This document shows positions 1,378 to 62,930 of a stretch of 64,000 nt of DNA, in pieces. Source of the DNA: an uncultured Gammaproteobacteria bacterium (GTDB lineage: Bacteria > Patescibacteriota > Patescibacteriia > Patescibacteriales > UBA12075); NCBI GenBank assembly GCA_964459725.1, contig CAYWNT010000001.1:155529-219528 (forward strand), given 5' to 3'. The stretch's first letter is position 1; each line of letters begins with the position of its first letter. The position numbers were made by a program, and so were the translations under genes. The notes under the pieces are model-generated. The model ran no database searches, was not told the origin of the DNA, and saw only the letters and a list, made by a program, of their open reading frames with translations.

Positions 1378-1472
1378 TGCCAAATTTCCACAAAACAAAA
1401 AAAACAATACAAAGCGGAGAATCTTTTGATTACTTCGCTTTTTTATTTTATTAAATTAATGTAGTTTAAATC

Positions 1473-1501
1473 TTGACATATTATTATAAATAATATACAA
1501 T
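1473..1501 (+). promoter_or_regulatory. sigma70-like promoter (TTGACA-17-TACAAT) for the SDR/MBL/NAD-binding/TetR cluster
   Basis: TTGACA at 1473..1478, a 17-nt spacer, then TACAAT at 1496..1501, about 50 nt upstream of the 1551 start. Confidence 0.5.
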
Positions 1502-1507
1502 TCTAAT

Positions 1508-1519
1508 GTGAGTACTCAC
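1508..1519. promoter_or_regulatory. perfect 12-bp palindrome GTGAGTACTCAC, candidate TetR operator
   Basis: The palindrome lies immediately downstream of the -10 box. A TetR-family gene closes the same cluster at 4153..4698. Confidence 0.35.
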
Positions 1520-1550
1520 TCATTTTTACAACTAATAATTATAGATAAGT

Positions 1551-2330
1551 ATGAATAAAAAAACAGCCTTAATAACTGGTGCTAGCTCAGGAATTGGTAA
1601 GGAGTTGGCAATAATACATGCTGAGCATGGAGGAGATTTAGTTATTGTAGCTCGCGGCAAAGAAAAGCTAGAAGAAATAAAAAAAGAGCTAACCGAAAAA
1701 CACAAAGTCAAAGTGATGATAATTGATAAGGATCTGGCTTTACCGAATGCCTCTAAGGAAGTATATAGTGAGGTGAAAAATGCTGGAATCGAGATTGATT
1801 ACTTGGTAAATAATGCTGGTTTTGGAGGAAGGGGAAAATTTCACAAAAGAGACTGGGAGAAAGATAAAGCAATGATCAATTTGAACGTCTTAGCCCTTAC
1901 TGAGCTTACCCGGCTGTATTTACCAGACATGGTAAAAAGAAACAATGGCAGAATACTGAATACATCCTCTACTGCCTCTTTTGTGCCTGGGCCACTCCAA
2001 GCGGTATATTATGCAACCAAGGCCTATGTTACATTTTTTAGTAACGCTATAGCAGAGGAGCTTAGTGATACGAGTATAACTGTGACCAATCTAATGCCAG
2101 GAGCAACTGAAACAGATTTTGCTAAAGTGGCAAATTTAGAGAACACAAATTTATTCAAGAAAACAGCATCTGCCCGAAGTGTGGCTGAGGATGGTTATAA
2201 TGGGATGTTGAAGGGCAAGCTCGATGTTGTGTCTGGCCTTTCTTTTGTTAATAAATTGCTGATTAAGCTTATGCCCTTTGCGCCAAAAAGGTTTGCCCTA
2301 AAAACAGTTCGAAAAATGCAAGAAGCATAA
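1551..2330 (+). CDS. short-chain dehydrogenase/reductase (SDR) family oxidoreductase
   Basis: TGASSGIGKELA cofactor motif, NNAG, and the catalytic S...YxxxK pattern (STAS...YYATKAYV). Confidence 0.9.
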   Translation: MNKKTALITGASSGIGKELAIIHAEHGGDLVIVARGKEKLEEIKKELTEKHKVKVMIIDKDLALPNASKEVYSEVKNAGIEIDYLVNNAGFGGRGKFHKRDWEKDKAMINLNVLALTELTRLYLPDMVKRNNGRILNTSSTASFVPGPLQAVYYATKAYVTFFSNAIAEELSDTSITVTNLMPGATETDFAKVANLENTNLFKKTASARSVAEDGYNGMLKGKLDVVSGLSFVNKLLIKLMPFAPKRFALKTVRKMQEA

Positions 2331-2334
2331 AAAT

Positions 2335-3453
2335 ATGAAAAGAATAAAAAAGTTTATAAAAATAATTATGTATATAATATTTGTTTTTATTGTTGGGGTA
2401 ATAATTCTTGCCACTCTATATCTAAACTTTAATCCGCAAAGCGGGGGGAAGGTTATAGACATTGTTTCTGGAAATTTTAATAACGGAAGATTTCAAAATT
2501 TGGTAGATACACCGTTATCAACCGGAGATAAATCCATGATGGTTTCAATGTATGAGTTTTTCTTCCAGAAGCATCCAGAAGCATTTCCATTAAGAGCAAT
2601 AAAAACAGAAAAAATAGATAGAGAATTACTGGAAAATCTTTCTGATGACGATATTGCAATTAGCTGGCTAGGGCATTCTACAGCGCTTATAAAAACAAAA
2701 GACGTGACCATCGTCACTGATCCTTTGTTTAATGGCAAGAATTTACCTCCAATGTATATGGGGCCAAAGAAGTTTCCATATACGAATGATTATGATGTGA
2801 GCGATCTTTCAAAAATTGATGTAGTACTCATTTCACATGATCATTATGATCATCTTGATATGGGGTCAGTTTTAAAACTAAAAGATTCACGCTTTTATGT
2901 GCCACTTGGTGTTAAATATCATTTACTTAGATGGGGAATTGAGGAATCTAATATTACTGAACTAGATTGGTATAGTGGAGCAGAATATAAAGAAAATATT
3001 AAGTTTACCCTAGCCCCAACCAGGCATTTCAGCGGCAGAGGGCTATTTAATAGAAATAAAACTCTTTGGGGATCTTGGGTGATAAAGGCTGGAGATAGAA
3101 GTATTTATTTCGGTGGTGACTCAGGATATTTTGAAGAGTTTAAGAAAATTGGAGAAGAGTATGGCCCTTTTGACTTAGCCCTGCTTGATGTTGGTCAGTA
3201 TGATTTGTCTTGGCAAGGGGTACACATGTTACCAAGTGAAGCTGCTCAAGCTGGAGTGGATCTTGGGGCAAAGAGTATTTTGCCAATTCACAATTCAAAA
3301 TATATCCTAGCTAAACATTCTTGGTATGAGCCGCTTGAAAAGGCGACCGAAGAAGCAAACAAACAAAATATAAATATAACCACTCCGCGTATTGGTCAGA
3401 CTTTTTTAGTAGATGATGATATGCCAAATGAGCGTTGGTGGGAGAATAGATAA
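2335..3453 (+). CDS. MBL-fold metallo-hydrolase with N-terminal TM anchor
   Basis: N-terminal hydrophobic helix, WLGHSTALIK, and the HDHYDHLD metal-binding motif. Confidence 0.8.
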   Translation: MKRIKKFIKIIMYIIFVFIVGVIILATLYLNFNPQSGGKVIDIVSGNFNNGRFQNLVDTPLSTGDKSMMVSMYEFFFQKHPEAFPLRAIKTEKIDRELLENLSDDDIAISWLGHSTALIKTKDVTIVTDPLFNGKNLPPMYMGPKKFPYTNDYDVSDLSKIDVVLISHDHYDHLDMGSVLKLKDSRFYVPLGVKYHLLRWGIEESNITELDWYSGAEYKENIKFTLAPTRHFSGRGLFNRNKTLWGSWVIKAGDRSIYFGGDSGYFEEFKKIGEEYGPFDLALLDVGQYDLSWQGVHMLPSEAAQAGVDLGAKSILPIHNSKYILAKHSWYEPLEKATEEANKQNINITTPRIGQTFLVDDDMPNERWWENR

Positions 3454-3478
3454 TATTTAATAAATTGATTATAAACAT

Positions 3479-4138
3479 ATGAGTAAAAACGTAATAATAA
3501 CAGGTGGCACAGGGATGGTTGGTTTACTAGTTTTAAAAGAGTGTTTAGAGAATGACAACATCTCAAGTGTTACCTCGCTAGTTCGAGAAAAATCAAATAT
3601 CACTCATCCAAAACTTAAGGAGGTGGTCATAGAAGATTTTTGTGATTATAGCAATCATGGTGATCTGTTTAGAAACAAGGACATAGCTTATTATTGTCTT
3701 GGAGTATACACTGGAGCAGTTCCAAGGGATGAGTTTCGAAAAATTACAGTTGATTTTACCATTGCTTTTGCTGACAAGCTTAGAGAGCAAAGCCCAAATG
3801 CAGGCTTTGTATTTCTAAGTGGAGCTGGAGCTGACAGGGCTGAAAAGAGTAGGATGATGTTTGCCAAAGACAAAGGGGCAGCTGAAAATTATTTATTAAA
3901 AAAGGATTTTAAAGCACTTCATATATTTCGACCAGGATATATTTATCCAGTTACACCTCGTAAGGAGCCAAATTTTTCCTATATATTATCAAGAAAATTA
4001 TATCCAATTTTAAAAGTATTTATTCCTGGTAGTGTAATTGAGTCAGTAGACTTGGCTCATGCTATGTTTTCGGTTGGAGTGAATGGAGGCAAGATGGATA
4101 CATATGAAAACAAAGATATTAGAAATTTAATTCAATAA
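3479..4138 (+). CDS. NAD(P)H-binding (atypical SDR / epimerase-like) protein
   Basis: N-terminal Rossmann motif ITGGTGMVG. Size and layout fit the NAD(P)-binding domain family. Confidence 0.7.
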   Translation: MSKNVIITGGTGMVGLLVLKECLENDNISSVTSLVREKSNITHPKLKEVVIEDFCDYSNHGDLFRNKDIAYYCLGVYTGAVPRDEFRKITVDFTIAFADKLREQSPNAGFVFLSGAGADRAEKSRMMFAKDKGAAENYLLKKDFKALHIFRPGYIYPVTPRKEPNFSYILSRKLYPILKVFIPGSVIESVDLAHAMFSVGVNGGKMDTYENKDIRNLIQ

Positions 4139-4152
4139 TTAATTCTTGTTGT

Positions 4153-4698
4153 ATGACTACAAAAGATAAAATACTAAAAAGCGCTTTAAAACTTTTCGCG
4201 CGTCAGGGCATAGACAAGACATCAACTCGAGAGATTACCAAAGATGTTGGTATTGCAGAGGGGACTCTTTTTGTGCACTTCAAAACTAAGCAAGAATTAA
4301 TCGACTCTCTTTATTTGGATATAAAGAAAGGATTGGTAGGAAATTTATCAGATTTAGTTGACACTAAAGTATCTACCGAAAAGAATATAAAATCAATGTC
4401 AGAATACATGATTAAGTATTTGATAAAGAATTATAATGAATTGATTTTTATGGAGATAATGGAAAAAGATCCAAAAATTAGTCAAAGGGCAAAAAATGAA
4501 GGAAGAAAGATGTATTTAGTTGTGTTAAAGCAGATAGGTGAATGGATAAAAAAGGGAGAGCTGAAAAAATTAGACAGAGAATTCATTGGTGGAATTGTGT
4601 GGGGTAATGTTGTGAGCATTGCCAAGTATTGTAAGGAATCACGAAAAAAAGTAAGCAAATCCATGCTTGATATAATTTGGGATTCTGTTAAAGGGTGA
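4153..4698 (+). CDS. TetR/AcrR family transcriptional regulator
   Basis: N-terminal HTH: ILKSALKLFARQGIDKTSTREITKDVGIAEGTLFVHF. Confidence 0.85.
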   Translation: MTTKDKILKSALKLFARQGIDKTSTREITKDVGIAEGTLFVHFKTKQELIDSLYLDIKKGLVGNLSDLVDTKVSTEKNIKSMSEYMIKYLIKNYNELIFMEIMEKDPKISQRAKNEGRKMYLVVLKQIGEWIKKGELKKLDREFIGGIVWGNVVSIAKYCKESRKKVSKSMLDIIWDSVKG

Positions 4699-4800
4699 TT
4701 GAGAGCTAGGTTGGGCGTTACTATTGATTTTTAATTATTTTAATGCTAGGATAAATTATTACAAAAATTTATAAGTCCATTTTTTAACAAGGAGGATGAT

Positions 4801-5487
4801 ATGGCATGTAACGCGTGTGAAAATAAGGATTGGGATGGAGATAGAGATGTTCCTGTAGGAGAGGAGCAATATGTTTGTTGGTGTTGCCAACAGCGTTGGT
4901 GGAGCTATAATACTCACTATAATCTTTGGACAACAGTGGATGATGATTTTACCTGGGATGTTTTAAGGCATGGTGTAGATATACCGATATCTATTGGTAA
5001 GCCAGCTTCTGTATTGCCTGGCTATGAAGACTATGCAGTTAAGCCCACACATAAAATTTGTGAAGAACGTTCTCCATATCCAAAGCTAGTTCTGATGGAT
5101 GGTCCGAGTGATATGCCAACAGCCGCAATACAGTGTGTGGGCGATTGGGAAAGGGGCAACATTTTTCAACATCAATTTTTATTTCCCTTGGGTGGTAGAT
5201 TGCCAGATGAAGATTGGATGGCCAAGGAAAAATTGGACACTTTTCATGTTCCCTTCGTTGGGACTGTGTCACATTGGCCATATGAAGACCGGCCAGAAGG
5301 ACTTTTTGAAGACGCAGGCGAAAAAGCATTTGCTCATTTAATTTCTGATCGGTTAAGAATAAACGGTAATCAAGCCTCATTCATCGTGCCTCTTGTATTT
5401 TTGGGTGATCCGAGTGTTGGAGTAATCACTGCTCGGCACTTTTTCGATGATTATATTCGAGAGGTAGCTGTAGAAAAATTCCAATAG
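4801..5487 (+). CDS. hypothetical Cys/Trp-rich protein (228 aa)
   Basis: AAGGAGG SD 6 nt upstream and its own terminator at 5507..5541. The N-terminus is CNAC...CWCC. No family recognised. Confidence 0.65.
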   Translation: MACNACENKDWDGDRDVPVGEEQYVCWCCQQRWWSYNTHYNLWTTVDDDFTWDVLRHGVDIPISIGKPASVLPGYEDYAVKPTHKICEERSPYPKLVLMDGPSDMPTAAIQCVGDWERGNIFQHQFLFPLGGRLPDEDWMAKEKLDTFHVPFVGTVSHWPYEDRPEGLFEDAGEKAFAHLISDRLRINGNQASFIVPLVFLGDPSVGVITARHFFDDYIREVAVEKFQ

Positions 5488-5506
5488 TATTAGTTGGTAA
5501 AAATAC

Positions 5507-5541
5507 ACGGTAGCAAGTCGAGAGATTTGCTACCGTTTTTT
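5507..5541 (+). terminator. rho-independent terminator
   Basis: ACGGTAGCAA / TTGCTACCGT 10-bp stem, 10-nt loop, T-run. Confidence 0.75.
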
Positions 5542-5659
5542 ATTATGATTGCATTGATAGAGATCGAATTACACCTTGAAACCAGAGAGGTAGATCCTTT
5601 TTCTGGTAAAATAAATTGCCCAGTTTTAGCTAAATATAGAAATATTTAAGCATAAATAC

Positions 5660-5688
5660 TTGACATTTTTTATAAAATATGCTATATT
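5660..5688 (+). promoter_or_regulatory. sigma70-like promoter (TTGACA-17-TATATT)
   Basis: TTGACA at 5660..5665 and TATATT at 5683..5688, upstream of the 5763 ORF. Confidence 0.5.
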
Positions 5689-5762
5689 AATATATCAAGA
5701 AGTGTTCTTTGATACTAACAAAAACAAAAAACAATTAACAATACATCAAAAGGAGGAGTGCT

Positions 5763-6926
5763 ATGCAGTCATCTGTATTGCTTAAAACTGGACAAGAGAT
5801 ATCAACCCCAATGGTTAAAGTTGTGCATATGGCCCTTGGTCGATTGTTCGAATCAAAGCCTGCTGTTTTTTTTGATTTCGTGTCAGCCTTACGTAATCCG
5901 AAAGAGTGGATACTTAGACCTGAAACCGTTGAAATTCTTAATCAGTATAGCCTGATGGAGGGAGAGAGCATTCGTAGCGAGGTGAGGTTAATCGCTCTGG
6001 CCTCAGTGGAGGGTGAAGGGCTGGAAATGAAATTGGTTTCGCCGGTTGCTGAAAAGCAATTTAACGACGGAAAGTCTGAGGAGAAAATTTGTCCGCTTGA
6101 TAATTACGAACTTTATGTTTTGGTTCGCAAAATAGCAGATATTATTTTTGAGGTAAAAGAATCGTCCGAAGATTCATTTTCAAGAGAAGATCGGCGCGAG
6201 CAGAGTTCGAATCCATATTACAGTCAGTCTGCCGATGGAGTTTTTCTTGAATTTTACTACAGCTCACCGAGTAAGCTTTGGACACCGTGGGGACAATGGA
6301 ATTTTATGGGTGGAGGAACTTGTTGGCCACAAGAATTGTTGCCGGAAATTTTTGAGAGGCTTGGTGCAAGAGAGTATATGCCGGAGCGTCATAGTCAAAT
6401 GGGGACATTTGGTCCGGTTTACTCACTCCACAAGGTTGATGATACTTCCTTGCCCATTCCTGTCGACTTGGAAAACGGGGCATACAGTTCCTACGAAGAT
6501 GTTACAAAGGCTTGGGCAGATTTGACCGAGAAATATTATAAATCTCAAGGAATAGAGATGCCTTTGTCTTACGAGGAGAGGTCGGCTCTGGATGATGTTA
6601 TTTTGAAAGAGCGAGGAGAAAAAGAGCCTCGATTGACCGATTCCGATATTCATTCGGTAGAGGGATTAATTTCGTTTGCAGGACAGGCTGTAAAGTTTTC
6701 CAAGAATGGCGGTGATACCTGGAAATATGCACTTCTCTGGAGGCAATCTGAACATTTCAGAGAAGGCGGATATGGTTTCGCAATGTATGAAGAGGTTATG
6801 CCAAACGTTGATGTTCATTGCCGAGGGTCTTTTACTGATAAAGACTTTGGAAGGGGCCTGATCGTTCGTCCTGTAGCTAATGAGTCAGAACTTGAAGGTG
6901 TCAGGTTCTCGTACGATCGTTGTTAG
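5763..6926 (+). CDS. hypothetical protein (387 aa)
   Basis: AAAGGAGG SD, its own promoter and terminator. No motif recognised. Confidence 0.7.
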   Translation: MQSSVLLKTGQEISTPMVKVVHMALGRLFESKPAVFFDFVSALRNPKEWILRPETVEILNQYSLMEGESIRSEVRLIALASVEGEGLEMKLVSPVAEKQFNDGKSEEKICPLDNYELYVLVRKIADIIFEVKESSEDSFSREDRREQSSNPYYSQSADGVFLEFYYSSPSKLWTPWGQWNFMGGGTCWPQELLPEIFERLGAREYMPERHSQMGTFGPVYSLHKVDDTSLPIPVDLENGAYSSYEDVTKAWADLTEKYYKSQGIEMPLSYEERSALDDVILKERGEKEPRLTDSDIHSVEGLISFAGQAVKFSKNGGDTWKYALLWRQSEHFREGGYGFAMYEEVMPNVDVHCRGSFTDKDFGRGLIVRPVANESELEGVRFSYDRC

Positions 6927-25850: not shown

Positions 25851-28800
25851 ATGAATAATCAGAAAAATCAGCAGAAAAGGAGCTCTTTTCCGGACATGGA
25901 GAAGGAGGTTTTGGCTTTTTGGCAAAAGAATAATATTTTTGAAAAATCAGTTGAAAACCCACCCCACCCTGACGGGCATCCCTCCAAGGAGGGGACTCCG
26001 GTTGAGGATTATGTTTTTTATGATGGGCCTCCTTTTGCCACCGGACTACCTCATTATGGTCATATAGTCGGAACAATAATGAAAGATGTAGTGCCAAGAT
26101 ATTGGACAATGCAAGGCAAAAGAGTTGAGCGCAAATGGGGATGGGATTGTCATGGTCTTCCTATTGAGAATATTGTTGAGAAAGAGCTTGGATCAAAGAA
26201 GAAAAAAGACATTGAAGAGGGTGTAGGTGTTGCGAAGTTCAACGAGCTTTGTAGATCAAAGGTTTTAAGCTATGTTGATGACTGGGAAAAAGTAATAAAA
26301 AAAATTGGTCGATGGGCGGATATGAAGAATGCTTACAAAACAATGGACATTGAATACATGGAATCTGTCTGGTGGGTGTTTAAGGAACTCTGGGATAAGA
26401 ACTTGATTTACAAAGATCATAGATCTATGCATGTTTGTCCTAGATGTGAGACTACCTTGTCACAGTCAGAGGTGACAGAAGGGTATGCTGATATCAAGGA
26501 TTTGTCAGCGATTGCCAAGTTTGAGTTGGAGGATGATGGCCCTTCGGCAGGCTCAGGGCAAGCTAAAACTTTCGTTTTAGCCTGGACTACTACACCTTGG
26601 ACATTGATTGGAAATGTTGCCTTGGCGGTTGGTAAAGATATAGATTATGTAAAAGCTGGAATCAAGAATCAGGAATCAGGAGTTACAGATAATTATATAA
26701 TTGCTAAAGAGTTGGCAGAAAAAGTTTTTAAGGATAGGGAGTTTGATGTTGTTGAAGAATTTAAAGGAGAGAAATTGATTGAAAAAAAATATAAACCCCT
26801 ATTTGATTATTATTCATCTGATAAAAATCTGGAAAATAGAGAAAATGGATGGCAGATTTATGGAGCTGATTTTGTAACCACTGAGGAGGGCACAGGAGTA
26901 GTTCATATTGCTCCGGCTTTTGGTGAGGATGATATGAGATTGGGTCATGAAAAGAATTTACCTTTTGTGCAGCATTTAACTATAGATGGTAATTTCAAAG
27001 AGGAAGTAGCTGACTTTAAGGGACTCAATGTGAAGCCAAAGGATAATCACATGTCGACTGATATTGAGATTATCAAATACTTAGCTCATAATGGGTTACT
27101 TTTTCACAAGGAAAAATACGAGCATAGCTACCCGCATTGTTGGCGCTGTGATACCCCGCTTATCAACTATGCAACGAGTTCTTGGTTTGTAAATATTACA
27201 AAAATAAAAGATAGAGCCCTAGAGACTGCTAAAGATGTGAATTGGTCACCAGAACATATCAAGAGAGGTCGTTTTGGTAAGTGGCTGGAGGGTGCTCGTG
27301 ATTGGTCAATTTCTCGTCAGCGTTTTTGGGCTAGCGTAATGCCTATCTGGAAATGCGATAAATGTGCTGATACTAAAGTTTTTGGATCAGTTGAGGAGTT
27401 GAGTGAGCATTTTGGAAATCCAAATAAATTATATCTAGTAAGACACGGGGAGGCGGAACAAAATGTTGCGCATATTCTAAATTCTGACTTAAATAACAAT
27501 CATTATCATTTAACAGAAAATGGGCGAGAGCAAGTTGAAAAAACAGCTAAAGAACTAAGGGATAAAAAAGTTGATTATATATTTTGTTCTCCATTTTTAA
27601 GAACAAAGGAGACGGCAGAAATCATATCAAAAGATCTAGGTGTAGAAATAATTTTTGATGATAGATTAAGTGAATTTGGTGTTGGTGATTTTGAGGGGAA
27701 AAATCAAGAAGATTTTATGAGGGTTTTTTCTAATTGGCCGGAAGAGAATATAGATTTAAGAAAAAAACATGGTGTAGAACTTGAAAAAGAGGCAGAAGAA
27801 AGATTTTCTAGTTTCTTGAATGAATTAAATGAAAAACACAAGAACAAGAATATAGTTATTGTTTCTCATGGAGATCCTCTTCAGTTTATGTATAGCCTGT
27901 TACAGGGAGTCGATAGGATAAAAACTTATAGTAGTGAGTATTACTCAGAAAAGGGAAAATCTAAGTTTTCTTATTCAAGGCTTGTCGATCTCCATAAACA
28001 TATAGTTGATGAAATTAAATTTGGGTGTGATAAGTGCGATGGCGAGATGGTTAGAGTTCCTGATGTGTTGGATACTTGGTTTGATTCTGGATCAATGCCA
28101 TATGCGCAGATGCATTATCCTTTTGAAAATAAAGAAAAGTTTGATAATAATTTCCCGGCAGAATTTATAGCTGAAGGATCTGATCAGACCAGGGCCTGGT
28201 TTTACTATATGCACATGATTGCTAATGGAATTAAGGATAAAAATGCTTATAAAAATGTGATTGTAAATGGTATAGTGCTCGCTGAAGATGGAAAAAAGAT
28301 GAGCAAAAAGCTTCAGAATTATCCGGATCCAATGGAGTTACTTGATAAATACGGGGCTGATGCACTTCGTTATTATCTCCTTACATCTCCAGTGATGTTG
28401 GCTGATAATTTGAATTTTTCTGAAGACGGAGTAAAGGAGTCTCTTAGGAAGGTAAATATGATTCTTTGGAATGTGGTGAGATTTTATGATTTATTTGAAG
28501 ATAAGTCGAAAGTTTATAAAACCGAAAGACCAAATAGTGAGAATATCTTAGATCAATGGATACTGGCAAGACTAGATGAGTTGATTGTTGAGGTGGGAGA
28601 GAATATGGAGAAATATAATTTGCCAAAAGCAACAAGGCCTATAGTTGAGTTTATTGATGATTTATCTACTTGGTATATCAGAAGAAGTCGTGACCGATTT
28701 AAATCAGAACATGAGAAGGACAAAGAAAGTGCTTTGGCGACAACCGGGCATCTGTTAGTCGAGCTTTCAAAGGTGATGGCACCATTTACACCATTTATTG

Positions 28801-29402
28801 CGGAGCAAGTATGGCAAAAAATAATTGGAAATGATTTTAAAGATGAGAATAAATCAGTTCATTTGGAAAGTTTTCCTAAGGAAGAAAAAGGACATGAAGT
28901 ATCCGAGGTGAAAATAATTGAAAGAATGAGTATGGCCCGAAAGATTGTTGAGATGGGTCTGGCAAAACGTGATGAAGTTGGAATTAAAGTAAGACAACCT
29001 CTTAACGAATTACGAATTACAAATTTCGAATTAAGGGATGAATATGTTGACTTGATTAAGGATGAAATGAATGTGAAATCCGTTGTTAGTGAAAAAGGCG
29101 AGGGTGATATGTCGGTTGAGCTGGATACTGAGATTACACCTGAACTAAAATTGGAAGGGGTGAAAAGAGAATTGGTTAGATATATTAACGCCCAGAGAAA
29201 AAAACAGGATTTGTCTATTCGTGATTTTGTGGTTATTGAATGGCAAGGAGAAAAAGAAATCAAAAAGGCGTTTGATAAATTTAGTGAAGAAATAAAGAAA
29301 GAGACTTTATCTCTGGATATTGTGGAGAAAGAAAAGGTAGATGATGGAGTGAGTGTAAAAATAGAAGGAGAAGAATTAATTTTAAAAATTAATAAAAAAT
29401 AA
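25851..29402 (+). CDS. ileS: isoleucine--tRNA ligase (type 2) with internal domain insertion
   Basis: PHYGH (HIGH), KMSKK (KMSKS), the WTTTPWTL editing-domain block, and DWSISRQRFW. 1183 aa. Confidence 0.95.
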   Translation: MNNQKNQQKRSSFPDMEKEVLAFWQKNNIFEKSVENPPHPDGHPSKEGTPVEDYVFYDGPPFATGLPHYGHIVGTIMKDVVPRYWTMQGKRVERKWGWDCHGLPIENIVEKELGSKKKKDIEEGVGVAKFNELCRSKVLSYVDDWEKVIKKIGRWADMKNAYKTMDIEYMESVWWVFKELWDKNLIYKDHRSMHVCPRCETTLSQSEVTEGYADIKDLSAIAKFELEDDGPSAGSGQAKTFVLAWTTTPWTLIGNVALAVGKDIDYVKAGIKNQESGVTDNYIIAKELAEKVFKDREFDVVEEFKGEKLIEKKYKPLFDYYSSDKNLENRENGWQIYGADFVTTEEGTGVVHIAPAFGEDDMRLGHEKNLPFVQHLTIDGNFKEEVADFKGLNVKPKDNHMSTDIEIIKYLAHNGLLFHKEKYEHSYPHCWRCDTPLINYATSSWFVNITKIKDRALETAKDVNWSPEHIKRGRFGKWLEGARDWSISRQRFWASVMPIWKCDKCADTKVFGSVEELSEHFGNPNKLYLVRHGEAEQNVAHILNSDLNNNHYHLTENGREQVEKTAKELRDKKVDYIFCSPFLRTKETAEIISKDLGVEIIFDDRLSEFGVGDFEGKNQEDFMRVFSNWPEENIDLRKKHGVELEKEAEERFSSFLNELNEKHKNKNIVIVSHGDPLQFMYSLLQGVDRIKTYSSEYYSEKGKSKFSYSRLVDLHKHIVDEIKFGCDKCDGEMVRVPDVLDTWFDSGSMPYAQMHYPFENKEKFDNNFPAEFIAEGSDQTRAWFYYMHMIANGIKDKNAYKNVIVNGIVLAEDGKKMSKKLQNYPDPMELLDKYGADALRYYLLTSPVMLADNLNFSEDGVKESLRKVNMILWNVVRFYDLFEDKSKVYKTERPNSENILDQWILARLDELIVEVGENMEKYNLPKATRPIVEFIDDLSTWYIRRSRDRFKSEHEKDKESALATTGHLLVELSKVMAPFTPFIAEQVWQKIIGNDFKDENKSVHLESFPKEEKGHEVSEVKIIERMSMARKIVEMGLAKRDEVGIKVRQPLNELRITNFELRDEYVDLIKDEMNVKSVVSEKGEGDMSVELDTEITPELKLEGVKRELVRYINAQRKKQDLSIRDFVVIEWQGEKEIKKAFDKFSEEIKKETLSLDIVEKEKVDDGVSVKIEGEELILKINKK
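25957..25995 (+). repeat. GC-rich bipartite hairpin element, copy 1 (in frame in ileS)
   Basis: ACCCACCCCACCCTGACGGGCATCCCTCCAAGGAGGGGA. Related copies lie at 46922..46960 and 59451..59495. Confidence 0.85.
27426..27986 (+). other. histidine-phosphatase (PGAM-type) domain inserted within IleRS
   Basis: LYLVRHGEAEQN...LTENGREQ...FCSPFLRTKETAEII...IVIVSHGDPLQ lies between ...SVEELSEHFGNPN and DLHKHIVDEIKFGCDKCDG. Confidence 0.8.
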
Positions 29403-36185: not shown

Positions 36186-36216
36186 TCAATTACAAATTAC
36201 AAATTAAGAATTATCA

Positions 36217-41987: not shown

Positions 41988-43349
41988 ATGACTACAGAAA
42001 AGAAGCAAAATAAAATAGAACTACTAGCTCCAGCAGGCAATCTGGAGAAGATGAAAACAGCTTTGGCCTTTGGGGCGGATGCTGTGTATGTTGGTATTCC
42101 TGATTTTTCTCTGCGAGTGCGGATTAATGATTTTGATATAGAGAAAATAAAAGAAGCGACAAAATATTGCCATGAGAAGGGTAAAAAAATATATGTAACA
42201 ATAAATATATTTGCTCATAATCGTCACATTGAAAAACTTCCAGCATACATTGAGGAGTTGAAAAAAATTGGAGTGGACGCTCTTATTATTTCTGACCCTG
42301 GTGTGATTGATGTTGTTAAAGAAGTTTGGCCAGAGGCGGCAATCCACCTCTCAACTCAGGCTAATGCCACGAATTGGAGGAGTGTTAAATTTTGGCATAG
42401 CCAGGGCGTTGAGAGAGTAATACTTGGCAGAGAAACAACTCTTGAAGAGATAAAAGAGATTCATGAGCGTGTTCCTGAAGTAGAGCTTGAAACTTTTGTG
42501 CATGGAGCAATGTGCATGGCCTATTCTGGTAGGTGTTTCTTGTCTAAGCATTTTGTAGATAGGTCTGGTAATCTGGGGGATTGTGTTCAGCCGTGTAGAT
42601 GGCGGTATAATTCTAGAAAACAGACGACAGACGACAGACGACAGGATGAGAGATTTTTTATAACTGAAGAAAGTCGTCCTGATCAGCCTTTGGAGATTGT
42701 TGAGGAGGAGCATGGGTCTTATATTTTGAATTCTAAAGATCTTAATTTACTTAAACATGTAAAAGAATTGGTTGATGCTGGTGTGGTTAGTTTGAAAATT
42801 GAGGGGCGTGCTAAGAGTGTTTATTATCAGGCAGTTGTTAATGGAATATACTCACACATAACATCCTCCTATTGCACGGCGGACAGGCATAACTCACAAC
42901 CCATAACACAAAAAGAGATTAATTATTTATATGAGGAGCTTGAAAACAAGATTACGCATAGGGGGTATACTACTGGGTTTATTCTTGGGGAGAGGGCTGA
43001 TCAGGATGTTGAAAATACACATAAGGTTATTGATTGGGAGTTTTGTGGGGTCGTCGTTGACGACGAGTCAAAAGTCCAGCCCCGTCATTCGACAGGGCAA
43101 GAGTCTATAAAGTCCAAAGTGCTTAATAATCAGATTTTAGTGAAGGTTCATAATGTTATTAAGCGAGGGGATGAGGTGGAGATTGTTGTGCCAAAATATG
43201 ATATAATAAAGATGAAGGTTGATAAGATGTATGAATTAAATGGAGAAGAAATAGATGAGGCGCATGGAGGGCAGGAGAAGATGGTTTTGCTTGAAGTAGA
43301 CGTTGATAGGGAAGTTCCTGAATATTCTGTTTTGAGACGCAAATTGTAA
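41988..43349 (+). CDS. peptidase U32 family protein
   Basis: LLAPAGN, ETFVHGAMCMAYSGRCFLS, LKIEGRAKS. Confidence 0.85.
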   Translation: MTTEKKQNKIELLAPAGNLEKMKTALAFGADAVYVGIPDFSLRVRINDFDIEKIKEATKYCHEKGKKIYVTINIFAHNRHIEKLPAYIEELKKIGVDALIISDPGVIDVVKEVWPEAAIHLSTQANATNWRSVKFWHSQGVERVILGRETTLEEIKEIHERVPEVELETFVHGAMCMAYSGRCFLSKHFVDRSGNLGDCVQPCRWRYNSRKQTTDDRRQDERFFITEESRPDQPLEIVEEEHGSYILNSKDLNLLKHVKELVDAGVVSLKIEGRAKSVYYQAVVNGIYSHITSSYCTADRHNSQPITQKEINYLYEELENKITHRGYTTGFILGERADQDVENTHKVIDWEFCGVVVDDESKVQPRHSTGQESIKSKVLNNQILVKVHNVIKRGDEVEIVVPKYDIIKMKVDKMYELNGEEIDEAHGGQEKMVLLEVDVDREVPEYSVLRRKL

Positions 43350-43355
43350 TAAATT

Positions 43356-43447
43356 CACATAACATGTAACACATAACATGCAACAAAATTCAAAAAGCGA
43401 AGCTTTTTGATGGTCATTGTTATGAGTTATGTGTTATGAGTTATGTG
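43356..43447. repeat. long composite inverted repeat: CACATAAC-type 14-mer arms around a CAAAAAGC-GAA-GCTTTTTG hairpin
   Basis: Left arm 43356..43384, core 43391..43409, right arm 43415..43447. The arms are imperfect reverse complements. Confidence 0.85.
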
Positions 43448-43451
43448 TAAA

Positions 43452-46347: not shown

Positions 46348-47466
46348 ATGTTTATGAAATTAATCGAATTAAACAAAGAAAAATTAGATAATTTTTTAGC
46401 TAATCAGGACAAATCTCAGTTTTTGCAGTCTTTTGAGTGGGGAGAATTTCAGGAAAAGACTGGTTTGGAAGTTTTTAGATATGGCGTGGAAGAAAATGAA
46501 GAATTAGTGGCAGTTGTTTCTTTGATCAAGAAAAATCTTGGAATTGGGAAGAGTTATTTTTATGCGCCGAGAGGAGTCGTGTTTAGTCATAAAGTCATAA
46601 AGTCAAAAGTCGCCCGCCTGCCGGACGGGCAGGAAAGTGTTTATAATTTTTTATTTAATGAGATAGAAAAAATTGCTAAAAAGGAAAATTGTATATTTCT
46701 CCGTTTTGAACCGCACAGAAAGTCAAAAGTCGCCCGCCTGCCGGACGGGCAGGAAAGTCGAAAGTCGAAAGTTATTAAAACTATCGATTTGCAGCCGGCG
46801 AAAACTTTGATGTTGGATTTGGGAAAATCAGAGGAGGAACTTTTGCAAGACATGCATCAGAAGACTCGGTATAATATTCGACTTGCGGAGAAAAAGGGCG
46901 TTGAGGTGGTAGAGGTTGATTACCCACCCCGGCCTGATGGCCACCCCTCCAGAGAGGGGAATTTATTTGAGGAGTTTTGGAAATTGATGAGTCAGACTGG
47001 AGGTCGTGATGGATTTCGGCTACATTCTAAAAATTATTACAAAAAAATGCTAGATGAGTCGAAAGTCTATAAAGTCGAAAGTCGAAAGTCTGAAGTTGAT
47101 TTAAGTATAAAATTGTTTCTGGCGAAGTATCAGGGGGAGGTGATTGCTGGAAATATTATTTCTTTTTTTGGAGATACTGTGACCTATATGCATGGTGCAT
47201 CATCTAATGAGTATAGAAATGTGATGGCTCCGTATATTCTTCAATGGGAAGTGATAAAGGCGGCAAAAGAAAAGGGGTATAAATATTATGACTTTTTTGG
47301 GATTGATAAAGATAAGTGGCCGGGAGTGACTAGATTCAAAGAAGGATTTTGCGTGAAAAATCTGGAAAAATGCCAAGTGACTTATCCAGGTACATTCGAT
47401 TTGGTGTTTAGTAAAGTGTGGTATAATGCATATAACATCCTTCGAAGAATTCGAAGAGTGTTATAA
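46348..47466 (+). CDS. FemAB-family peptidoglycan interpeptide-bridge aminoacyltransferase
   Basis: FLQSFEWGEFQ, YAPRG, TRYNIRLAEKKG, YMHGASSNEYRNVMAPYILQWE, YDFFGI. It contains several in-frame repeat insertions. Confidence 0.8.
   Translation: MFMKLIELNKEKLDNFLANQDKSQFLQSFEWGEFQEKTGLEVFRYGVEENEELVAVVSLIKKNLGIGKSYFYAPRGVVFSHKVIKSKVARLPDGQESVYNFLFNEIEKIAKKENCIFLRFEPHRKSKVARLPDGQESRKSKVIKTIDLQPAKTLMLDLGKSEEELLQDMHQKTRYNIRLAEKKGVEVVEVDYPPRPDGHPSREGNLFEEFWKLMSQTGGRDGFRLHSKNYYKKMLDESKVYKVESRKSEVDLSIKLFLAKYQGEVIAGNIISFFGDTVTYMHGASSNEYRNVMAPYILQWEVIKAAKEKGYKYYDFFGIDKDKWPGVTRFKEGFCVKNLEKCQVTYPGTFDLVFSKVWYNAYNILRRIRRVL
46600..46638 (+). repeat. 39-nt AAAGTC + GC-hairpin element, copy 1
   Basis: AAGTCAAAAGTCGCCCGCCTGCCGGACGGGCAGGAAAGT, identical to 46720..46758. 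Confidence 0.95.
46720..46758 (+). repeat. 39-nt AAAGTC + GC-hairpin element, copy 2
   Basis: Exact copy, offset by exactly 120 nt (40 codons) from copy 1. Confidence 0.95.
46922..46960 (+). repeat. GC-rich bipartite hairpin element, copy 2 (in frame in the FemAB-family gene)
   Basis: ACCCACCCCGGCCTGATGGCCACCCCTCCAGAGAGGGGA. Confidence 0.85.
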
Positions 47467-52200: not shown

Positions 52201-52774
52201 AGAGATAAAAGAAGAGCTTATAAAAGCAGGCCTATCAGAAGATGGAAAGGTGGCCTTGATTGACGGTAAGACAGGGGAAAAATTTGATAACAAAGTTACT
52301 GTGGGATACAAGTACATGTTAAAACTGAACCACATGATTGAAGATAAGATTCACCAGAGATCAATTGGACCATACTCACTTATTACTCAACAGCCTTTGG
52401 GTGGTAAAGCTCAGTTTGGTGGACAGAGATTTGGAGAAATGGAAGTGTGGGCATTGGAGGCTTATGGAGCTGCCCATTGTTTGCAGGAAATTCTAACTAT
52501 TAAATCTGATGATGTGCCAGGAAGAAGCAAGGCTTATGAATCAATTATTAAGGGAGAGGAGATTAGAAAGTTAAACGTACCTGAATCATTTAACGTTTTG
52601 GTTAGAGAAATGAAAGGTCTTTGTTTGGATGTTGAATTACTTGGAGGAGATGATCAACCGGTAAATCTGGAGTTAGACGAGGAAGATGTTGAAACTGTTC
52701 CGGCTGAAAATGATGACAAAGGAGATAATGATGAAAAAAAGGAAGAAGAGAGCAGTGAAGACTCTGAAAAATAA
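49289..52774 (+). CDS. rpoB: DNA-directed RNA polymerase subunit beta
   Basis: Collinear conserved RpoB blocks, for example GRHGNKGVISKI and QRFGEMEVWALEAYGAA. The start is moved to ATG 49289; the track TTG 49244 lies inside a leader hairpin. Confidence 0.95.
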   Translation: MFYSKIPNYKGAEDRKYFIGSHASVQMPDLIESQKDSYKWFLKEGLADLFDEISPVTDFIGRDLELYFKDFVLDEPKFNEVESRKKNITYEAPLRVKVVLTNKRTEQTEEQEVFLGDFPLMTDNGTFIINGIERVVVSQLIRSAGVIFSSEFLKGKKYYGAKIIPNRGAWLEIETDANKVIWVRIDRKRKVAVTSLLRAFGISDDEEIIDLFKDVDVKADGEDGYIDATIAKDIAKNEAEGLKEVYKRIRPGDLATTENARQLIYSMFFRFDRYDFDRVGRYKLNRKFGFDIPNNKETRILRKEDLISIIKEVIRLNITQEDEDDIDHLGNRRVRAIGELIQNKFRVGLARMERIIKDRMSTADINEINPGKLINARPVISVVKEFFMSSQLSQFMDQINPLAELEHKRRLSAMGPGGLTRERAGFDVRDVHTTHYGRICPIATPEGPNIGLIGHLASHAKLNKYGFLEAPYRKVINSVPNKKEETEGHVASEDVCIIKNDKKGKVIVKGGETINKKKASEIEDKIDVDTMIPVKPVVTSEIHYLDAFEDEKFVTTAFTTPIDEDGHFLVNKCEGRVQGTPGTVEVNKVDYLGVAANQIISIATSLIPFMEHDDGQRALMGTNMQRQAVPLVSPDSPIVGTGMEGNAAVNSGHVIVAEDNGEVTVVDGDNIEVKYKGDKTVKYELTKFLRSNASTCINQKPIIDVGDKIKKGQSLTDGPSIDNGELALGKNVLVAFMTWEGYNFEDAIIVSERMVSDDVFSSIHIEDYTIDIRDTKLGEEMITSDIPNISEEKLKNLDDRGIIRIGAEVSSGDILVGKITPKGETELSAEEKLLRAIFGEKAKDVRDSSLYLEHGEHGKVVDVKIFSREDGDKLSAGVLQSVQVTVANLRKIQVGDKMAGRHGNKGVISKIVPVEDMPHMEDGTPIDVILSPLGIISRMNLGQLLETHLGFAAKKLGYKAATPVLNGISEEEIKEELIKAGLSEDGKVALIDGKTGEKFDNKVTVGYKYMLKLNHMIEDKIHQRSIGPYSLITQQPLGGKAQFGGQRFGEMEVWALEAYGAAHCLQEILTIKSDDVPGRSKAYESIIKGEEIRKLNVPESFNVLVREMKGLCLDVELLGGDDQPVNLELDEEDVETVPAENDDKGDNDEKKEEESSEDSEK

Positions 52775-52785
52775 TTCTTAAATTA

Positions 52786-52878
52786 TAATTACTAATTTCT
52801 AACATAAATCCTAATTTCTAATTACTAATTTCTAAAATATTTAGAAATTGAAATTTAGAAACTTAGAAATTTAATTAC
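52786..52878. repeat. rpoB-rpoC spacer built from 3 direct TAATTTCTA and 3 inverted TAGAAAYT units
   Basis: Direct copies start at 52793, 52812 and 52826. Inverted copies start at 52842, 52856 and 52864. The central 10-bp hairpin is at 52827..52849. Confidence 0.9.
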
Positions 52879-59296: not shown

Positions 59297-59450
59297 ATTT
59301 TTATTTTAAACTAATAATATAAGAGATTCGATAAATTAATTTGGATAATTCCCATCCTTGGAGGGGAATGTTTATTTTTTGCCCAAAGGGCTGAGAAAAA
59401 TAGACTCGGGGTGGGTCAAGGATCGTTGAATTTTAACTATTTTATTGTTA

Positions 59451-59495
59451 ACCCACCCCGCCAGGCTTCGCCTGCCCGCCCCTCCGAGGAGGGGA
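59451..59495. repeat. GC-rich bipartite hairpin element, copy 3 (intergenic)
   Basis: ACCCACCCCGCCAGGCTTCGCCTGCCCGCCCCTCCGAGGAGGGGA. Its ACCCACCCC also pairs with GGGGTGGGT at 59408..59416. Confidence 0.85.
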
Positions 59496-59510: not shown

Positions 59511-60728
59511 TTATCTTCCGATGAATTTAAGTTTATCGTCTTTTTGTCTCACAGTCTTGATTACCTTTTTAATCATGTTTCCTGTGATATCTCTTCCTCC
59601 TAGTCCTACAACAAATCCTTGTATCTTAGTCAGTGCTTTATTCTTGATGGCGGATTTAACGTCTAGGGTGAGTGGCCCATCAGTGGCGCCTAGAGAGACT
59701 GCTTTTTCTATAACTGCAACTTCTTTAGCATTTTTTACAATCTTTAGAACTTCTTCAGCTGGGAATGGGCGATAGGTTTTTATTTTTATAATTCCGGTGC
59801 CTGAGGTGATAAATTTCAGCTCGCCTGTCTTTGTGCTGTGTTCGTCAATGACATCCTTTATAGTTCCTGCAACAGATCCCATAGCGATCAATACCGTCTT
59901 TGGATTCTTTGGTCCATAGTATTCTATGAGGCCGTTGTTTACTTGAGATCTTTTTTCTTGTTTTTTTATGGCAGACGGCACTAGTTTTTTTAGATTTTCG
60001 TATTCTTTTAGAATTACTTTTTGACTATCTCTAAGGTCATTGTGTAGCTCTTCTCTGATTTCCATGTAGTGTGCCGGAGGGGCAAAGCAGCCAAAGGTAA
60101 CCGGGTTTTTCGGATCTAGATAATCTCCTTTTTTAGGCTTGTAGTCTGGAAGAAATTTTTTAATTTCTTTTTGAGTTGGAATAGAAACTCCTTCATAGGT
60201 ATGAGTGAGAACAAAGCCATCAATATTTATCATGACAGGAATTTTCAAACTCTCTGCAATTTTATAGGCTAAGATATGCTGCTCTATTGCTTCTTGGTGA
60301 TTCTCTGCAAAGAAATGAATCCAGCCGGCATCACGAATTGTCATAGAGTCTTGGTGATCATTCCAGATGGTGATTGGTGCTGATACGCCGCGATTGGCGC
60401 AAGTCACCACAATAGGGAGTCTCATGCCGGCGATGTTGAAAAGCACTTCTGTCATTAGAAGTATTCCTTGGGAACTGGTAGCTGTATAGGTTCGCACTCC
60501 GGAAGCGCTAGCTCCGGTAACGATAGAGGCAGCAGCAAACTCTGACTCTGCTCTTACGTATTCATAGCTAGCCTCCCCATCAGCCTTCAGTTTCGCCAAG
60601 TCCTCTACAATGTGAGTCTGAGGTGTAATAGGGTAGGCTGATATTACGGCTGGCTTGATGTTGTTTACTGTTTGGGCTATCGCCTGGGAACCCTCTAGGA
60701 TTTGAGATCGTTGGGTTTTTTTTGTCAT
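59511..60728 (-). CDS. porA: 2-oxoacid (pyruvate):ferredoxin oxidoreductase alpha subunit
   Basis: The N-terminal block GSQAIAQTV...ISAYPITPQT and a size of 405 aa fit PorA. Confidence 0.9.
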   Translation of the reverse strand: MTKKTQRSQILEGSQAIAQTVNNIKPAVISAYPITPQTHIVEDLAKLKADGEASYEYVRAESEFAAASIVTGASASGVRTYTATSSQGILLMTEVLFNIAGMRLPIVVTCANRGVSAPITIWNDHQDSMTIRDAGWIHFFAENHQEAIEQHILAYKIAESLKIPVMINIDGFVLTHTYEGVSIPTQKEIKKFLPDYKPKKGDYLDPKNPVTFGCFAPPAHYMEIREELHNDLRDSQKVILKEYENLKKLVPSAIKKQEKRSQVNNGLIEYYGPKNPKTVLIAMGSVAGTIKDVIDEHSTKTGELKFITSGTGIIKIKTYRPFPAEEVLKIVKNAKEVAVIEKAVSLGATDGPLTLDVKSAIKNKALTKIQGFVVGLGGRDITGNMIKKVIKTVRQKDDKLKFIGR

Positions 60729-62183: not shown

Positions 62184-62252
62184 AATTACGAATTATTAAT
62201 TACGGAATATAAAATTAATATTTTTTTGTATCGTAATTCGTAATTATTAATT
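62184..62252. repeat. AATTACG heptamer inverted repeat
   Basis: AATTACGAATTATTAATTACG (62184..62204) faces CGTAATTCGTAATTATTAATT (62232..62252). Confidence 0.85.
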
Positions 62253-62930
62253 TTTAATTGTTTTATTGATTATTTCTTCAAAGGCGGAAAGTGGTAAACT
62301 TCCCTTTACTTTATGTCCGTTAATGAACCAAGTTGGCGTCCCTGTGATGCCAAGTTCTTGTCCGTCAGAAAAATCTTTCTGTATTTTGCTTAAATATTTT
62401 TTACTATCAAAGCATTTAGTAAATCTCTCAACGTCAGTTCCGACCTGCATAGCCAGATTTATAATTTCTTTTCTTTCTGCCACTCCTTGGTTTATAAATA
62501 ACTTATCGTGCATTGGCCAGAAAAGACCTTGCTCACCAGCGCACCTGCCGGCCATTGCCAGATCTCCTGACTGCTCTGTAATTATTGGGTAATCTCGGAA
62601 TATTATTTTTACATTTTTTTTATATTTACGGCTTAATTCTCTGATTACGGGAAATGAATTTTTGCAGTAAGGACAAGAGAAGTCGCTAAATTCAACTATG
62701 GTAATTTTAGGGTTCGTAGCTCCGATTGAGAAATTGTCACCCGGGCCTGTAATTATTTTAGATATTTCTGTGCCTCCTGAGGTTGGGTTAGGGACCAATT
62801 GGCCCTGATTGCTTTTTTTAATAACATTTAATACCAAAAATACAAATGCTATCAAAAATATTAGAGCAATCGTAAAAAGGGCAATAAACAAAATGCCCCA
62901 TTTTTTTTTATACCAACGCTTGTTGTCCAT
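62247..62930 (-). CDS. DsbA-family thioredoxin-fold protein with N-terminal TM anchor
   Basis: TM helix, and the FSCPYCK active site. Confidence 0.8.
   Translation of the reverse strand: MDNKRWYKKKWGILFIALFTIALIFLIAFVFLVLNVIKKSNQGQLVPNPTSGGTEISKIITGPGDNFSIGATNPKITIVEFSDFSCPYCKNSFPVIRELSRKYKKNVKIIFRDYPIITEQSGDLAMAGRCAGEQGLFWPMHDKLFINQGVAERKEIINLAMQVGTDVERFTKCFDSKKYLSKIQKDFSDGQELGITGTPTWFINGHKVKGSLPLSAFEEIINKTIKN

Follow-up and report, generated by a model that had tools for sequence, protein, structure and literature searches.

A GC-rich two-hairpin repeat in frame in a FemAB-family gene of a Patescibacteria genome, probably a REP- or RPE-like selfish passenger

Rickettsia palindromic elements (RPEs) were reportedly described by Ogata et al. 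in 2000; these dispersed repeats of about 100-150 bp, known from Rickettsia only, stand in frame in housekeeping genes, including those of tRNA-related enzymes, and add a surface segment without disrupting the protein. GC-cluster insertions are also found in var1 of yeast mitochondria, and the 'byp' elements of Magnusiomyces are skipped by the ribosome. Repetitive extragenic palindromic (REP) sequences and REPINs are mobilised by RAYT transposases of the Y1 HUH type (PMC3116915, PMC3733652, PMC6006769), and REPs inserted in frame inside genes, among them tRNA synthetase genes, have been argued to be neutral in loops (PMC3733652, PMC6006769). [quoted passage not shown] Here, a 39-nt GC-rich element is described that lies in frame in a FemAB-family gene within a 64,000-nt stretch of a Patescibacteria genome (assembly GCA_964459725.1, contig CAYWNT010000001.1, positions 155,529 to 219,528; hereafter the window). 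It is best explained, with a probability of about 0.8, as a REP- or RPE-like selfish dispersed DNA repeat, tolerated as a passenger in a permissive surface loop of the host protein.

The FemAB-gene copy reads YPPRPDGHPSREGN; the 39-nt string ACCCACCCCGGCCTGATGGCCACCCCTCCAGAGAGGGGA has one exact match in the window, against 0.00 expected from 100 shuffles. Its GC content is 64% in a window and genome of about 36%, and only about 20 such GC-rich islands exist in the whole window. The element encodes (Y)PPRPDGHPSREG(N), within the insert-spanning stretch VDYPPRPDGHPSREGNLFEEFWK; the surrounding translation is ...VEVDYPPRPDGHPSREGNLFEEFW, or ...VEVVEVDYPPRPDGHPSREGNLFEEFW in a longer rendering. 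The best solved relative of the host protein is the Lipid II:glycine glycyltransferase of PDB entry 6snr (1.5e-17), with a gap at the insert. An earlier note on this DNA, which had placed a 39-nt in-frame element here in a FemAB-family gene, is thus confirmed by the exact match and by the Pfam assignment of the host (Table 1).

The FemAB segment is an insertion. When the FemAB protein is aligned with 19 homologs (52-91% identity), 17 of them lack the segment DYPPRPDGHPSREGN, and all invariant FemAB columns are preserved in the insert-bearing protein. The segment is therefore neither ancestral nor conserved, the opposite of the outcome that the earlier note had named as refuting its proposal. 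Among the exceptions, P0002 is the same species with the same insert, and its contig (L121) is 99.78% identical over 10.8 kb without gaps. P0013 and P0064, both Patescibacteria FemAB proteins, carry different inserts at the identical loop, and the P0013 insert is encoded by a different 72-nt GC-rich palindrome (ACCTCACCCC...CTCCCTCC-TTCGTAA-GGAGGGAG...GGAGAGGGGA). Together with the present element, these distinct inserts indicate that the FemAB loop was hit independently in at least three lineages. The P0013 gene belongs to GCA_028707515.1, where the palindrome CCTCACCCC...GGAGAGGGGA lies in the same FemAB loop at about 2000-2075 of locus L151.

A sister copy stands in frame in ileS, and at its site all 15 ileS homologs, as well as the solved IleRS structures 1ile and 6ldk, show an 11-aa gap; the reading frame is intact in both host genes. 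Neither the FemAB nor the ileS copy is recently derived from the other, since 10 of their 39 positions differ, with a compensatory change in a stem among these differences. The proposal that the same element was inserted independently into a second housekeeping gene is thus well supported by the homolog alignments, by covariance-model E-values of 6e-12 or below for both coding copies, and by intergenic copies nearby. In ENA, JGI and Logan assemblies, every strain-level contig with the neighbouring genes retains both inserts, and no strain lacking an insert was found among them. This excludes an assembly artefact and means that the inserts are fixed in this population. The idea that the segment is an ancestral lineage-specific loop, a product of compositional chance or an artefact is effectively refuted: although no insert-free ortholog closer than about 60-70% identity is available, the homologs without the segment, the 0.00 chance matches expected, the covariance-model E-values (1e-12 to 1e-13), the 64% GC in a 36% GC genome and the identical sequence in independent assemblies all speak against it.

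An AlphaFold2 model of the FemAB protein, built from the alignment (mean predicted local distance difference test score (pLDDT) 82.8, predicted TM-score 0.82), places the insert in a loop: residues 191-203 are predicted as coil between a strand (186-190) and a helix (204-221), with a pLDDT of about 57 for the block. Of the surface loop that the earlier note expected from such mapping, the prediction thus gives the loop; its solvent exposure appears probable from the coil state, the low confidence and the variable loop length among homologs.

The minimum free energy (MFE) fold of the FemAB copy has two hairpins, as RNA (-18.9 kcal/mol, 97% of the ensemble, z = -2.86) and as DNA (-10.5 kcal/mol, z = -3.36). 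Both halves of the element had been described as hairpins; this holds for the FemAB copy, with its GGCC/GGCC and CCCCTC/GAGGGG stems, but not for the partly degraded ileS copy, which has ATCCCTCC where ACCCCTCC is expected and a 3-bp first stem, and in which the two-hairpin fold is not the MFE structure (z = -0.6). Hairpin 2 of the FemAB copy includes CCTCC, resembling the anti-Shine-Dalgarno (anti-SD) sequence, and most other family copies, the ileS and intergenic ones included, carry GGAGG on the 3' arm of this hairpin.

The pattern ACCCACCCC-N8-30-CCCTCC-NNN-GAGGGGA matches the window at three sites (the FemAB, ileS and 45-nt intergenic copies), with 0.00 expected from shuffles. A covariance model (R1), built from 93 copies and run on the window with filters off, found four copies, two in genes and two intergenic (Table 1). 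The 45-nt intergenic copy lies 16 nt past the stop codon of a minus-strand POR_N gene (59511..60728) and is antisense to it. It forms a head-to-head pair (GGGGTGGGT, 31 nt, ACCCACCCC) with the degenerate copy, in which AT-rich spacers separate the modules, and both coding copies are singlets. As no more copies were found in 10 kb added at each side, the density of the element is about 4 per 84 kb, with half of the copies within essential genes.

Table 1. The element, its hosts and its further copies in the window.
Feature	Position	Strand	Evidence or comment
FemAB-family gene copy of the GC-rich two-hairpin element, in frame	46922..46960	+	R1 56.9 bits, E = 1.8e-13
Host gene: FemAB-family peptidoglycan-bridge transferase, 372 aa	46348..47466	+	Pfam FemAB 1.5e-47, Acetyltransf_6 1.3e-13
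Single-stranded 5' module ACCCACCCC	46922..46930	+	Common to all window copies and copies in other phyla; part of the search pattern, so invariant in alignment A4 by construction
Hairpin 1, GGCC-TGAT-GGCC, variable covarying stem of the family	46931..46942	+	MFE fold
Hairpin 2, CCCCTC-CAGA-GAGGGG, conserved stem	46944..46959	+	MFE fold; 99.6% paired in A4, which is not independent as the search pattern required these bases
Sister copy in frame in ileS, 39 nt, partly degraded, encodes PPHPDGHPSKEG	25957..25995	+	R1 51.2 bits, E = 5.6e-12
Host of sister copy: isoleucyl-tRNA synthetase ileS, 1183 aa	25851..29402	+	Pfam tRNA-synt_1 1.4e-124, Anticodon_1 2.2e-32
Intergenic copy, 45 nt	59451..59495	+	R1 43.9 bits, E = 4.8e-10; ORF map
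Degenerate expanded copy: ACCCACCCC, 16 nt, GCCCTTTGGGC, 14 nt, CCCCTCCAAGGATGGGA	59347..59419	-	R1 23.7 bits, E = 9.4e-05

The element belongs to a widespread family with a covarying hairpin. Its layout is ACCCACCCC, followed by a variable, covarying hairpin and then by ACCCCTCC-N2-GGAGGGGA. In one-genome-per-species collections, pattern matches were found in at least 120 stretches from more than 10 phyla; the 22 pattern-specified bases are invariant by construction, and the middle hairpin, its covariation and the doublets were not selected for. According to record titles, the hosts include Cyanobacteria (Okeania, Chamaesiphon, Nodosilinea, Prochloron, Spirulina), Candidatus Binatia, Acidobacteriota, Terriglobia, Verrucomicrobiota, Opitutales, Kiritimatiellia, Lentisphaerota, Ignavibacteriota, Bacteroidota (Mucilaginibacter), Nitrospira, Chloroflexota and a Candidatus Falkowbacteria metagenome-assembled genome (MAG; L108). 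One further contig (L094) is labelled Candidatus Nanoarchaeia, a taxon label that rests on a 5.3-kb binned contig. The element is also carried by 11 IMG/VR viral contigs (L127-L137), often a few bases from a stop codon (L128 ...TAAgcACCCACCCC), and viruses are therefore a possible vehicle of its spread. Hairpin 1 is near-identical in L094 (1915-1958 and 4844-4891) and L108 (5522-5618) (GCCTCGCCGAGCTCGGC vs ACCTCGCCGGGCTCGGC), which are labelled archaeal and bacterial, respectively; either the bin label is wrong or the element has moved between domains.

Of 121 unique copies, 98 have a middle hairpin (hairpin 1) of at least 3 bp; its stem differs greatly in sequence between copies, and its loop is TTC, TAC, TGC or TCC (UNCG-type) in 58 of the 98. 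Across 93 copies, all five stem pairs show changes on both sides, with 86.7% of cells paired, and the covariation score of 0.220 compares with 0.068 in shuffles (0 of 500 reach 0.220) and at most 0.083 with slid partners. A or C is conserved just before CCCTCC. Copies usually lie just past stop codons, and a crude ORF-based call of their orientation to the upstream gene gave 34 sense and 33 antisense; outside the window genome, genes were called simply from stop to stop, with a Pfam check for the cited cases only. In Binatia, Opitutales and cyanobacteria (L005, L035, L079, L097), copies often form inverted (convergent) doublets with 10-60 nt between them, and the same 8-kb loci hold additional unselected copies, about 22 exact and 15 more with up to three substitutions.

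In Rfam, the window gave no match at the gathering score, and at E-value thresholds the window copies and seven loci gave only chance-level matches to unrelated families. A weak Acido-Lenti-1 match in L097 is located elsewhere in that locus. The motif was not found in the two broad REP/RAYT surveys searched, and a full-text literature search with the motif strings (ACCCACCCC, GGAGGGGA, CCCCTCC) returned unrelated eukaryotic papers only. The family is one of REP-like elements, distinct and apparently uncatalogued. A metagenome scan with a pattern for the CTGAYG-loop subfamily gave five matches, on contigs of about 50% GC, mostly intergenic and none Patescibacteria-like, with no new coding copies.

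In the explanation favoured here, a small GC-rich two-hairpin repeat landed in the FemAB-family coding sequence of a low-GC Patescibacteria genome, and the same family independently hit ileS and an intergenic spacer in the window. The FemAB copy probably survived because its length is a multiple of three and the frame in use is stop-free, and because this frame encodes a Pro-, Gly- and charge-rich peptide devoid of hydrophobic residues in a strand-helix loop tolerating extra length. Its retention is thus attributed to its being 39 nt long, open in frame and hydrophilic, and the added residues most likely bring no function to the protein but are a passenger, neutral or slightly costly. Copies behind genes show no bias in orientation, which, together with the antisense intergenic copy, points to a DNA-level element and argues against a strand-specific RNA. 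A selfish, DNA-level nature also fits the frequent inverted doublets and the lack of an Rfam family. Elsewhere in the family, in-frame copies also lie within real domains: Por_Secre_tail (L074), DsbD_2 and P-type ATPase (L094), and TnpB (L115, L009).

Several points weigh against this explanation. No transposase or other mobilising function was linked to the element. The canonical 5' GT[AG]G foot of RAYT-mobilised REPs is absent, the 5' flank being ACCCACCCC in all copies; GTGG occurs on the opposite strand only, 3 nt from hairpin 1 on its 3' side. No near-identical empty site was found that would set the boundaries of the insert or a target duplication, and the net extra length is 11-12 aa, not 13, compared with homologs of at most 70% identity. 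The dominance of UNCG-type loops in hairpin 1 would fit a role at the RNA level. Finally, ordinary translation of the open in-frame insert is a default assumption.

A TTGA target-site duplication was considered, as TTG-WWW precedes the three full copies and TTG(A) follows 5-6 nt behind them. This would imply a 51-nt insertion and was rejected, since the ancestral IleRS loop would then be 6 aa shorter than that of every homolog, given the 11-aa gap there. A terminator or 3' untranslated region function was likewise set aside, as copies behind genes are unbiased in orientation and the hairpins in the window are not followed by a T-run.

A role in mRNA, as a translational pause, an SD/anti-SD mimic hairpin or a stability element for which the structure is kept, would be favoured by the stable RNA fold of the FemAB copy (-18.9 kcal/mol, z = -2.86), by the mostly UNC(G) loops of hairpin 1, by the CCUCC-GGAGG pairing in the consensus of hairpin 2 and by the sense orientation of both coding copies. 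However, sense and antisense copies behind genes are equal in number (34 and 33), the intergenic copy in the window runs antisense to the gene upstream of it, the two-hairpin MFE fold is lost in the ileS copy, in-frame copies in L074 and Okeania are antisense, and there is no Rfam match. An RNA role therefore appears unlikely.

How a selfish DNA repeat of this kind would spread is less clear. The leading guess, and a tentative one, is that an HUH/Y1 (RAYT-like) transposase would act in trans and mobilise the element in the form of a single-stranded DNA hairpin. A search with an HUH...Y motif regular expression found no ORF in the window, in the 10-kb flanks on either side or in the other loci apart from L114. 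The Y1_Tnp of L114 (Pfam 2.1e-06), the only one near a copy, is flanked by unrelated inverted repeats (TTCTGGAGTGCGGACGCAA). The terminal inverted repeats (TIRs) of TIRYT tyrosine transposases carry a GGGGWSAS motif (PMC3733652), which GGGGTGGG of the element does not fit. The terminus of the P0013 palindrome, GGGGTGAG, does fit it.

In the main alternative, a somewhat doubtful one, existing copies would give rise to others through recombination, gene conversion or template switching, or copies would come in on imported DNA, with no dedicated transposase. It would account for the lack of a linked transposase, and the near-identity of the core across phyla and in viral contigs suggests horizontal movement. 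At a different repeat in the same gene (46575-46640), two strains differ in the repeat, with 99.8% identity downstream and 87.7% upstream, which looks like a recombination junction. Recombination alone, however, leaves unexplained the new insertions into the unrelated ileS and FemAB loops that previously held no copy, and when a hairpin covaries between flanks that are conserved, this is a signature of recognition of the structure by a protein.

The element behaves like an RPE or an intragenic REP. With RPEs it shares the dispersed palindromic form, in-frame position in housekeeping genes including those of tRNA-related enzymes, the addition of a surface segment to a protein that is not disrupted, and a small AT-rich genome of a host-dependent organism. 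It differs in its length (39-45 nt), its host (Patescibacteria) and its make-up of two short hairpins behind a C-rich leader, in having a core common to many phyla, and in showing no apparent sequence likeness to RPEs, of which RPE-4 and RPE-6 carry a CGTC tag; by size and host it is set apart from RPE-1 to RPE-8 as described. Like REPs, it is a GC-rich hairpin repeat in the 20-40 nt range that varies in stem sequence with the structure kept; most copies lie a short way downstream of genes, and a few stand in frame within them, a tRNA synthetase gene included. Unlike REPs, it has no 5' GT[AG]G foot, and no cognate RAYT was found in the window, its flanks or the other loci; it has instead a flank that is long and invariant (ACCCACCCC), a second hairpin that is likewise invariant, and about 22 bases conserved from phylum to phylum, where REP families usually have just a tetranucleotide tag in common. 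As to doublets, inverted ones are common elsewhere in the family, and the window holds one divergent head-to-head pair with a degenerate partner (59347-59495). Since the size and hairpin of a REP are present and its foot is not, and the behaviour of an RPE is present and its size and host are not, the element is not filed as a REPIN or an RPE.

The GC clusters of yeast mitochondria are likewise short, GC-rich, palindromic and mobile in very AT-rich genomes, some of them inside protein-coding genes; however, they and the byps are organellar and unrelated in sequence, and byps are bypassed, whereas the present insert is open and in frame. Coxiella MITEs are comparable as small non-autonomous repeats that add peptide segments in a reduced genome, but they measure 70-300 bp and have TIRs and target duplications, whereas the 39-nt element has no TIRs or clear duplication. 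The kind of event is thus familiar, and the host group is new. Beyond expectation are the core conserved over many phyla, two domains by label and viral contigs, and the recurrent insertion into the same FemAB loop in different lineages.

Both coding copies are 39 nt long and start in the same codon phase, at an offset of 1 mod 3 from the ORF start (574 nt in the FemAB gene and 106 nt in ileS). The peptides of this shared phase ('xPP') are PPHPDGHPSKEG in ileS and PPRPDGHPSREG in FemAB, and it is the only frame that lacks a hydrophobic residue in both copies; L, M, I, V, W or C occur in the other open frames. Of the six frames, only the third sense frame is closed, by a TGA in both copies, so that agreement by chance has a probability of about 0.2. 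The equal length and phase stated by the earlier note therefore stand, and the selection that it proposed for them is suggestive only.

Evidence from other lineages is mixed. L094 (45% GC) holds two more in-frame sense copies with the same 5' phase, one inside a DsbD_2 domain and the other in the Hydrolase domain of a P-type ATPase, ending HPSQEG, and the related P0013 element has the equivalent phase at both ends. Counter to a phase preference, the copies of four Ignavibacteriae paralogs (MAG locus L074) are antisense and in another frame, read IPSLEGYAQRGVG, and those of the Okeania TnpB genes (L115, L009) are likewise antisense in a different frame, read SPPGRGARGVG. Family-wide, mean hydropathy is lowest in the shared phase (-1.29), with a small margin over other frames, and lengths are not skewed to multiples of three (40 of 136 unique copies). 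With a p of 1/6, two of four independent new events have a probability of about 0.13, and three of five, including P0013, of about 0.04. Thus a preference or selection for the shared phase is reasonable and mildly supported, but not established.

The phase also bears on the idea that the peptide PPxPDGHPSxEG is itself selected, as a surface motif for proline-rich interaction or a linker recruited into several proteins. The window coding copies share their phase and keep PDGHPS despite three synonymous differences, and the two L094 sense copies, one of them ending HPSQEG, have the same 5' phase. These synonymous differences, however, are compensatory stem changes of the DNA hairpin (ACCC/GGGC vs GGCC/GGCC), the intergenic copy has the same modules, the segment has low pLDDT, the hosts are unrelated (IleRS, FemAB, DsbD_2, ATPase) and other frames are used in other lineages, which makes selection of the peptide improbable, slightly more so than an RNA role.

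The four L074 paralogs lie in tandem (1306-5915) and are BNR-repeat proteins with a type IX secretion system Por_Secre_tail; the element is in frame within the C-terminal sorting domain of each (IRFG[IPSLEGYAQRGVG]MVTFKVYD). The TnpB copies (L115 6566-7801, L009 938-1642) are a short variant without hairpin 1, ACCCACCCC-TCTTGCT-CCCCTCCCGGGAGGGGA-TGGGGGTGGGT, inserted in frame between the OrfB_IS605 and Cas12f1-like TNB domains. Okeania also has the element as tandem CCCACCCCTAACCCCTCCCAA arrays.

In-frame palindromic repeats in essential genes show selfish DNA adding protein segments. Earlier records of such cases come mainly from Rickettsia and from a small number of Proteobacteria and Verrucomicrobia rich in REPs, a range now extended to the Candidate Phyla Radiation. 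Genomes of this radiation are about 1 Mb and nearly all coding, so the element has few refuges besides permissive protein loops. With three more repeat-derived loops in the FemAB gene and same-loop inserts elsewhere, much of the protein length variation in Patescibacteria may share this origin. Repeat-derived loops affect annotation, alignment and structure prediction, and metagenome assemblies break at such sites. As the core is conserved across phyla and absent from Rfam and from the REP surveys searched, it offers a concrete sequence with which to seek the mobiliser.

More speculatively, the occurrence of one 40-nt element, with about 22 near-invariant bases and a covarying stem, in more than ten bacterial phyla, in Patescibacteria, in a contig labelled as that of a DPANN archaeon and in viral contigs might imply an unrecognised conserved partner acting in trans, the element persisting in reduced genomes as protein loops in a hydrophilic frame; this is a rather unlikely proposition at present. 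If true, the partner would be an enzyme specific for the hairpin and widely transferred, or else a host factor present universally, e.g. the anti-SD end of 16S rRNA, mimicked by hairpin 2. In reduced, gene-dense genomes the element would then persist mainly as protein loops in one preferred hydrophilic frame, and essential genes would repeatedly gain new protein segments from it.

The FemAB gene contains a second repeat family, also in frame: segments 46596-46638 and 46716-46758 are 98% identical and read KSKVARLPDGQES. The family is built of AAAGTC/GAAAGTC heptamer runs flanking a GC hairpin, GCCTGCCGGACGGGCAGG (46596-46638, 46716-46772, 47057-47095). GAAAGTC runs are found at 46753-46772 and 47057-47090, and the heptamer-only run reads ESKVYKVESRKSEV. 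The three segments map to low-pLDDT coils of the model (residues 86-92, 126-137 and 240-248). FemAB homologs have analogous heptamer-plus-hairpin inserts with other heptamers, e.g. NFQFPCLAGRQAISNSQ and ITNYQPCLPAGRLRITNS.

Opposite 46575-46640, L121 (879-956) has AATTTTC runs and NFQFSISNFQTISNDQNSKIKK in place of the KSKVARLPDGQES element, with 99.78% identity from 46641 on. With 87.7% identity upstream, this polymorphism marks either recombination with its junction at the repeat or an assembly that is chimeric. Two contigs from independent assemblies (L149, L150) start at about 47037-47060 of the window, inside the FemAB gene at the GAAAGTC run; evidently, these repeats fragment metagenome assemblies.

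Residues 527-688 of the ileS product form a complete histidine phosphatase domain (His_Phos_1, 1.4e-36) between the class I catalytic halves, an architecture also seen in the strain contigs. Many Patescibacteria IleRS entries are 250-520 aa long or marked 'partial' even though they lie on long contigs (up to 385 kb), which suggests that ileS is often split or interrupted in Patescibacteria. Tandem runs of 7-nt units (ACGAATT, AATTACA, ACAGACG, GTTATGA, TAATTTC and others) occur in spacers and ORFs of the window, including the 3' part of ileS (29005-29033, 36188-36206, 42620-42644, 43356-43448, 52768-52873, 62184-62274).

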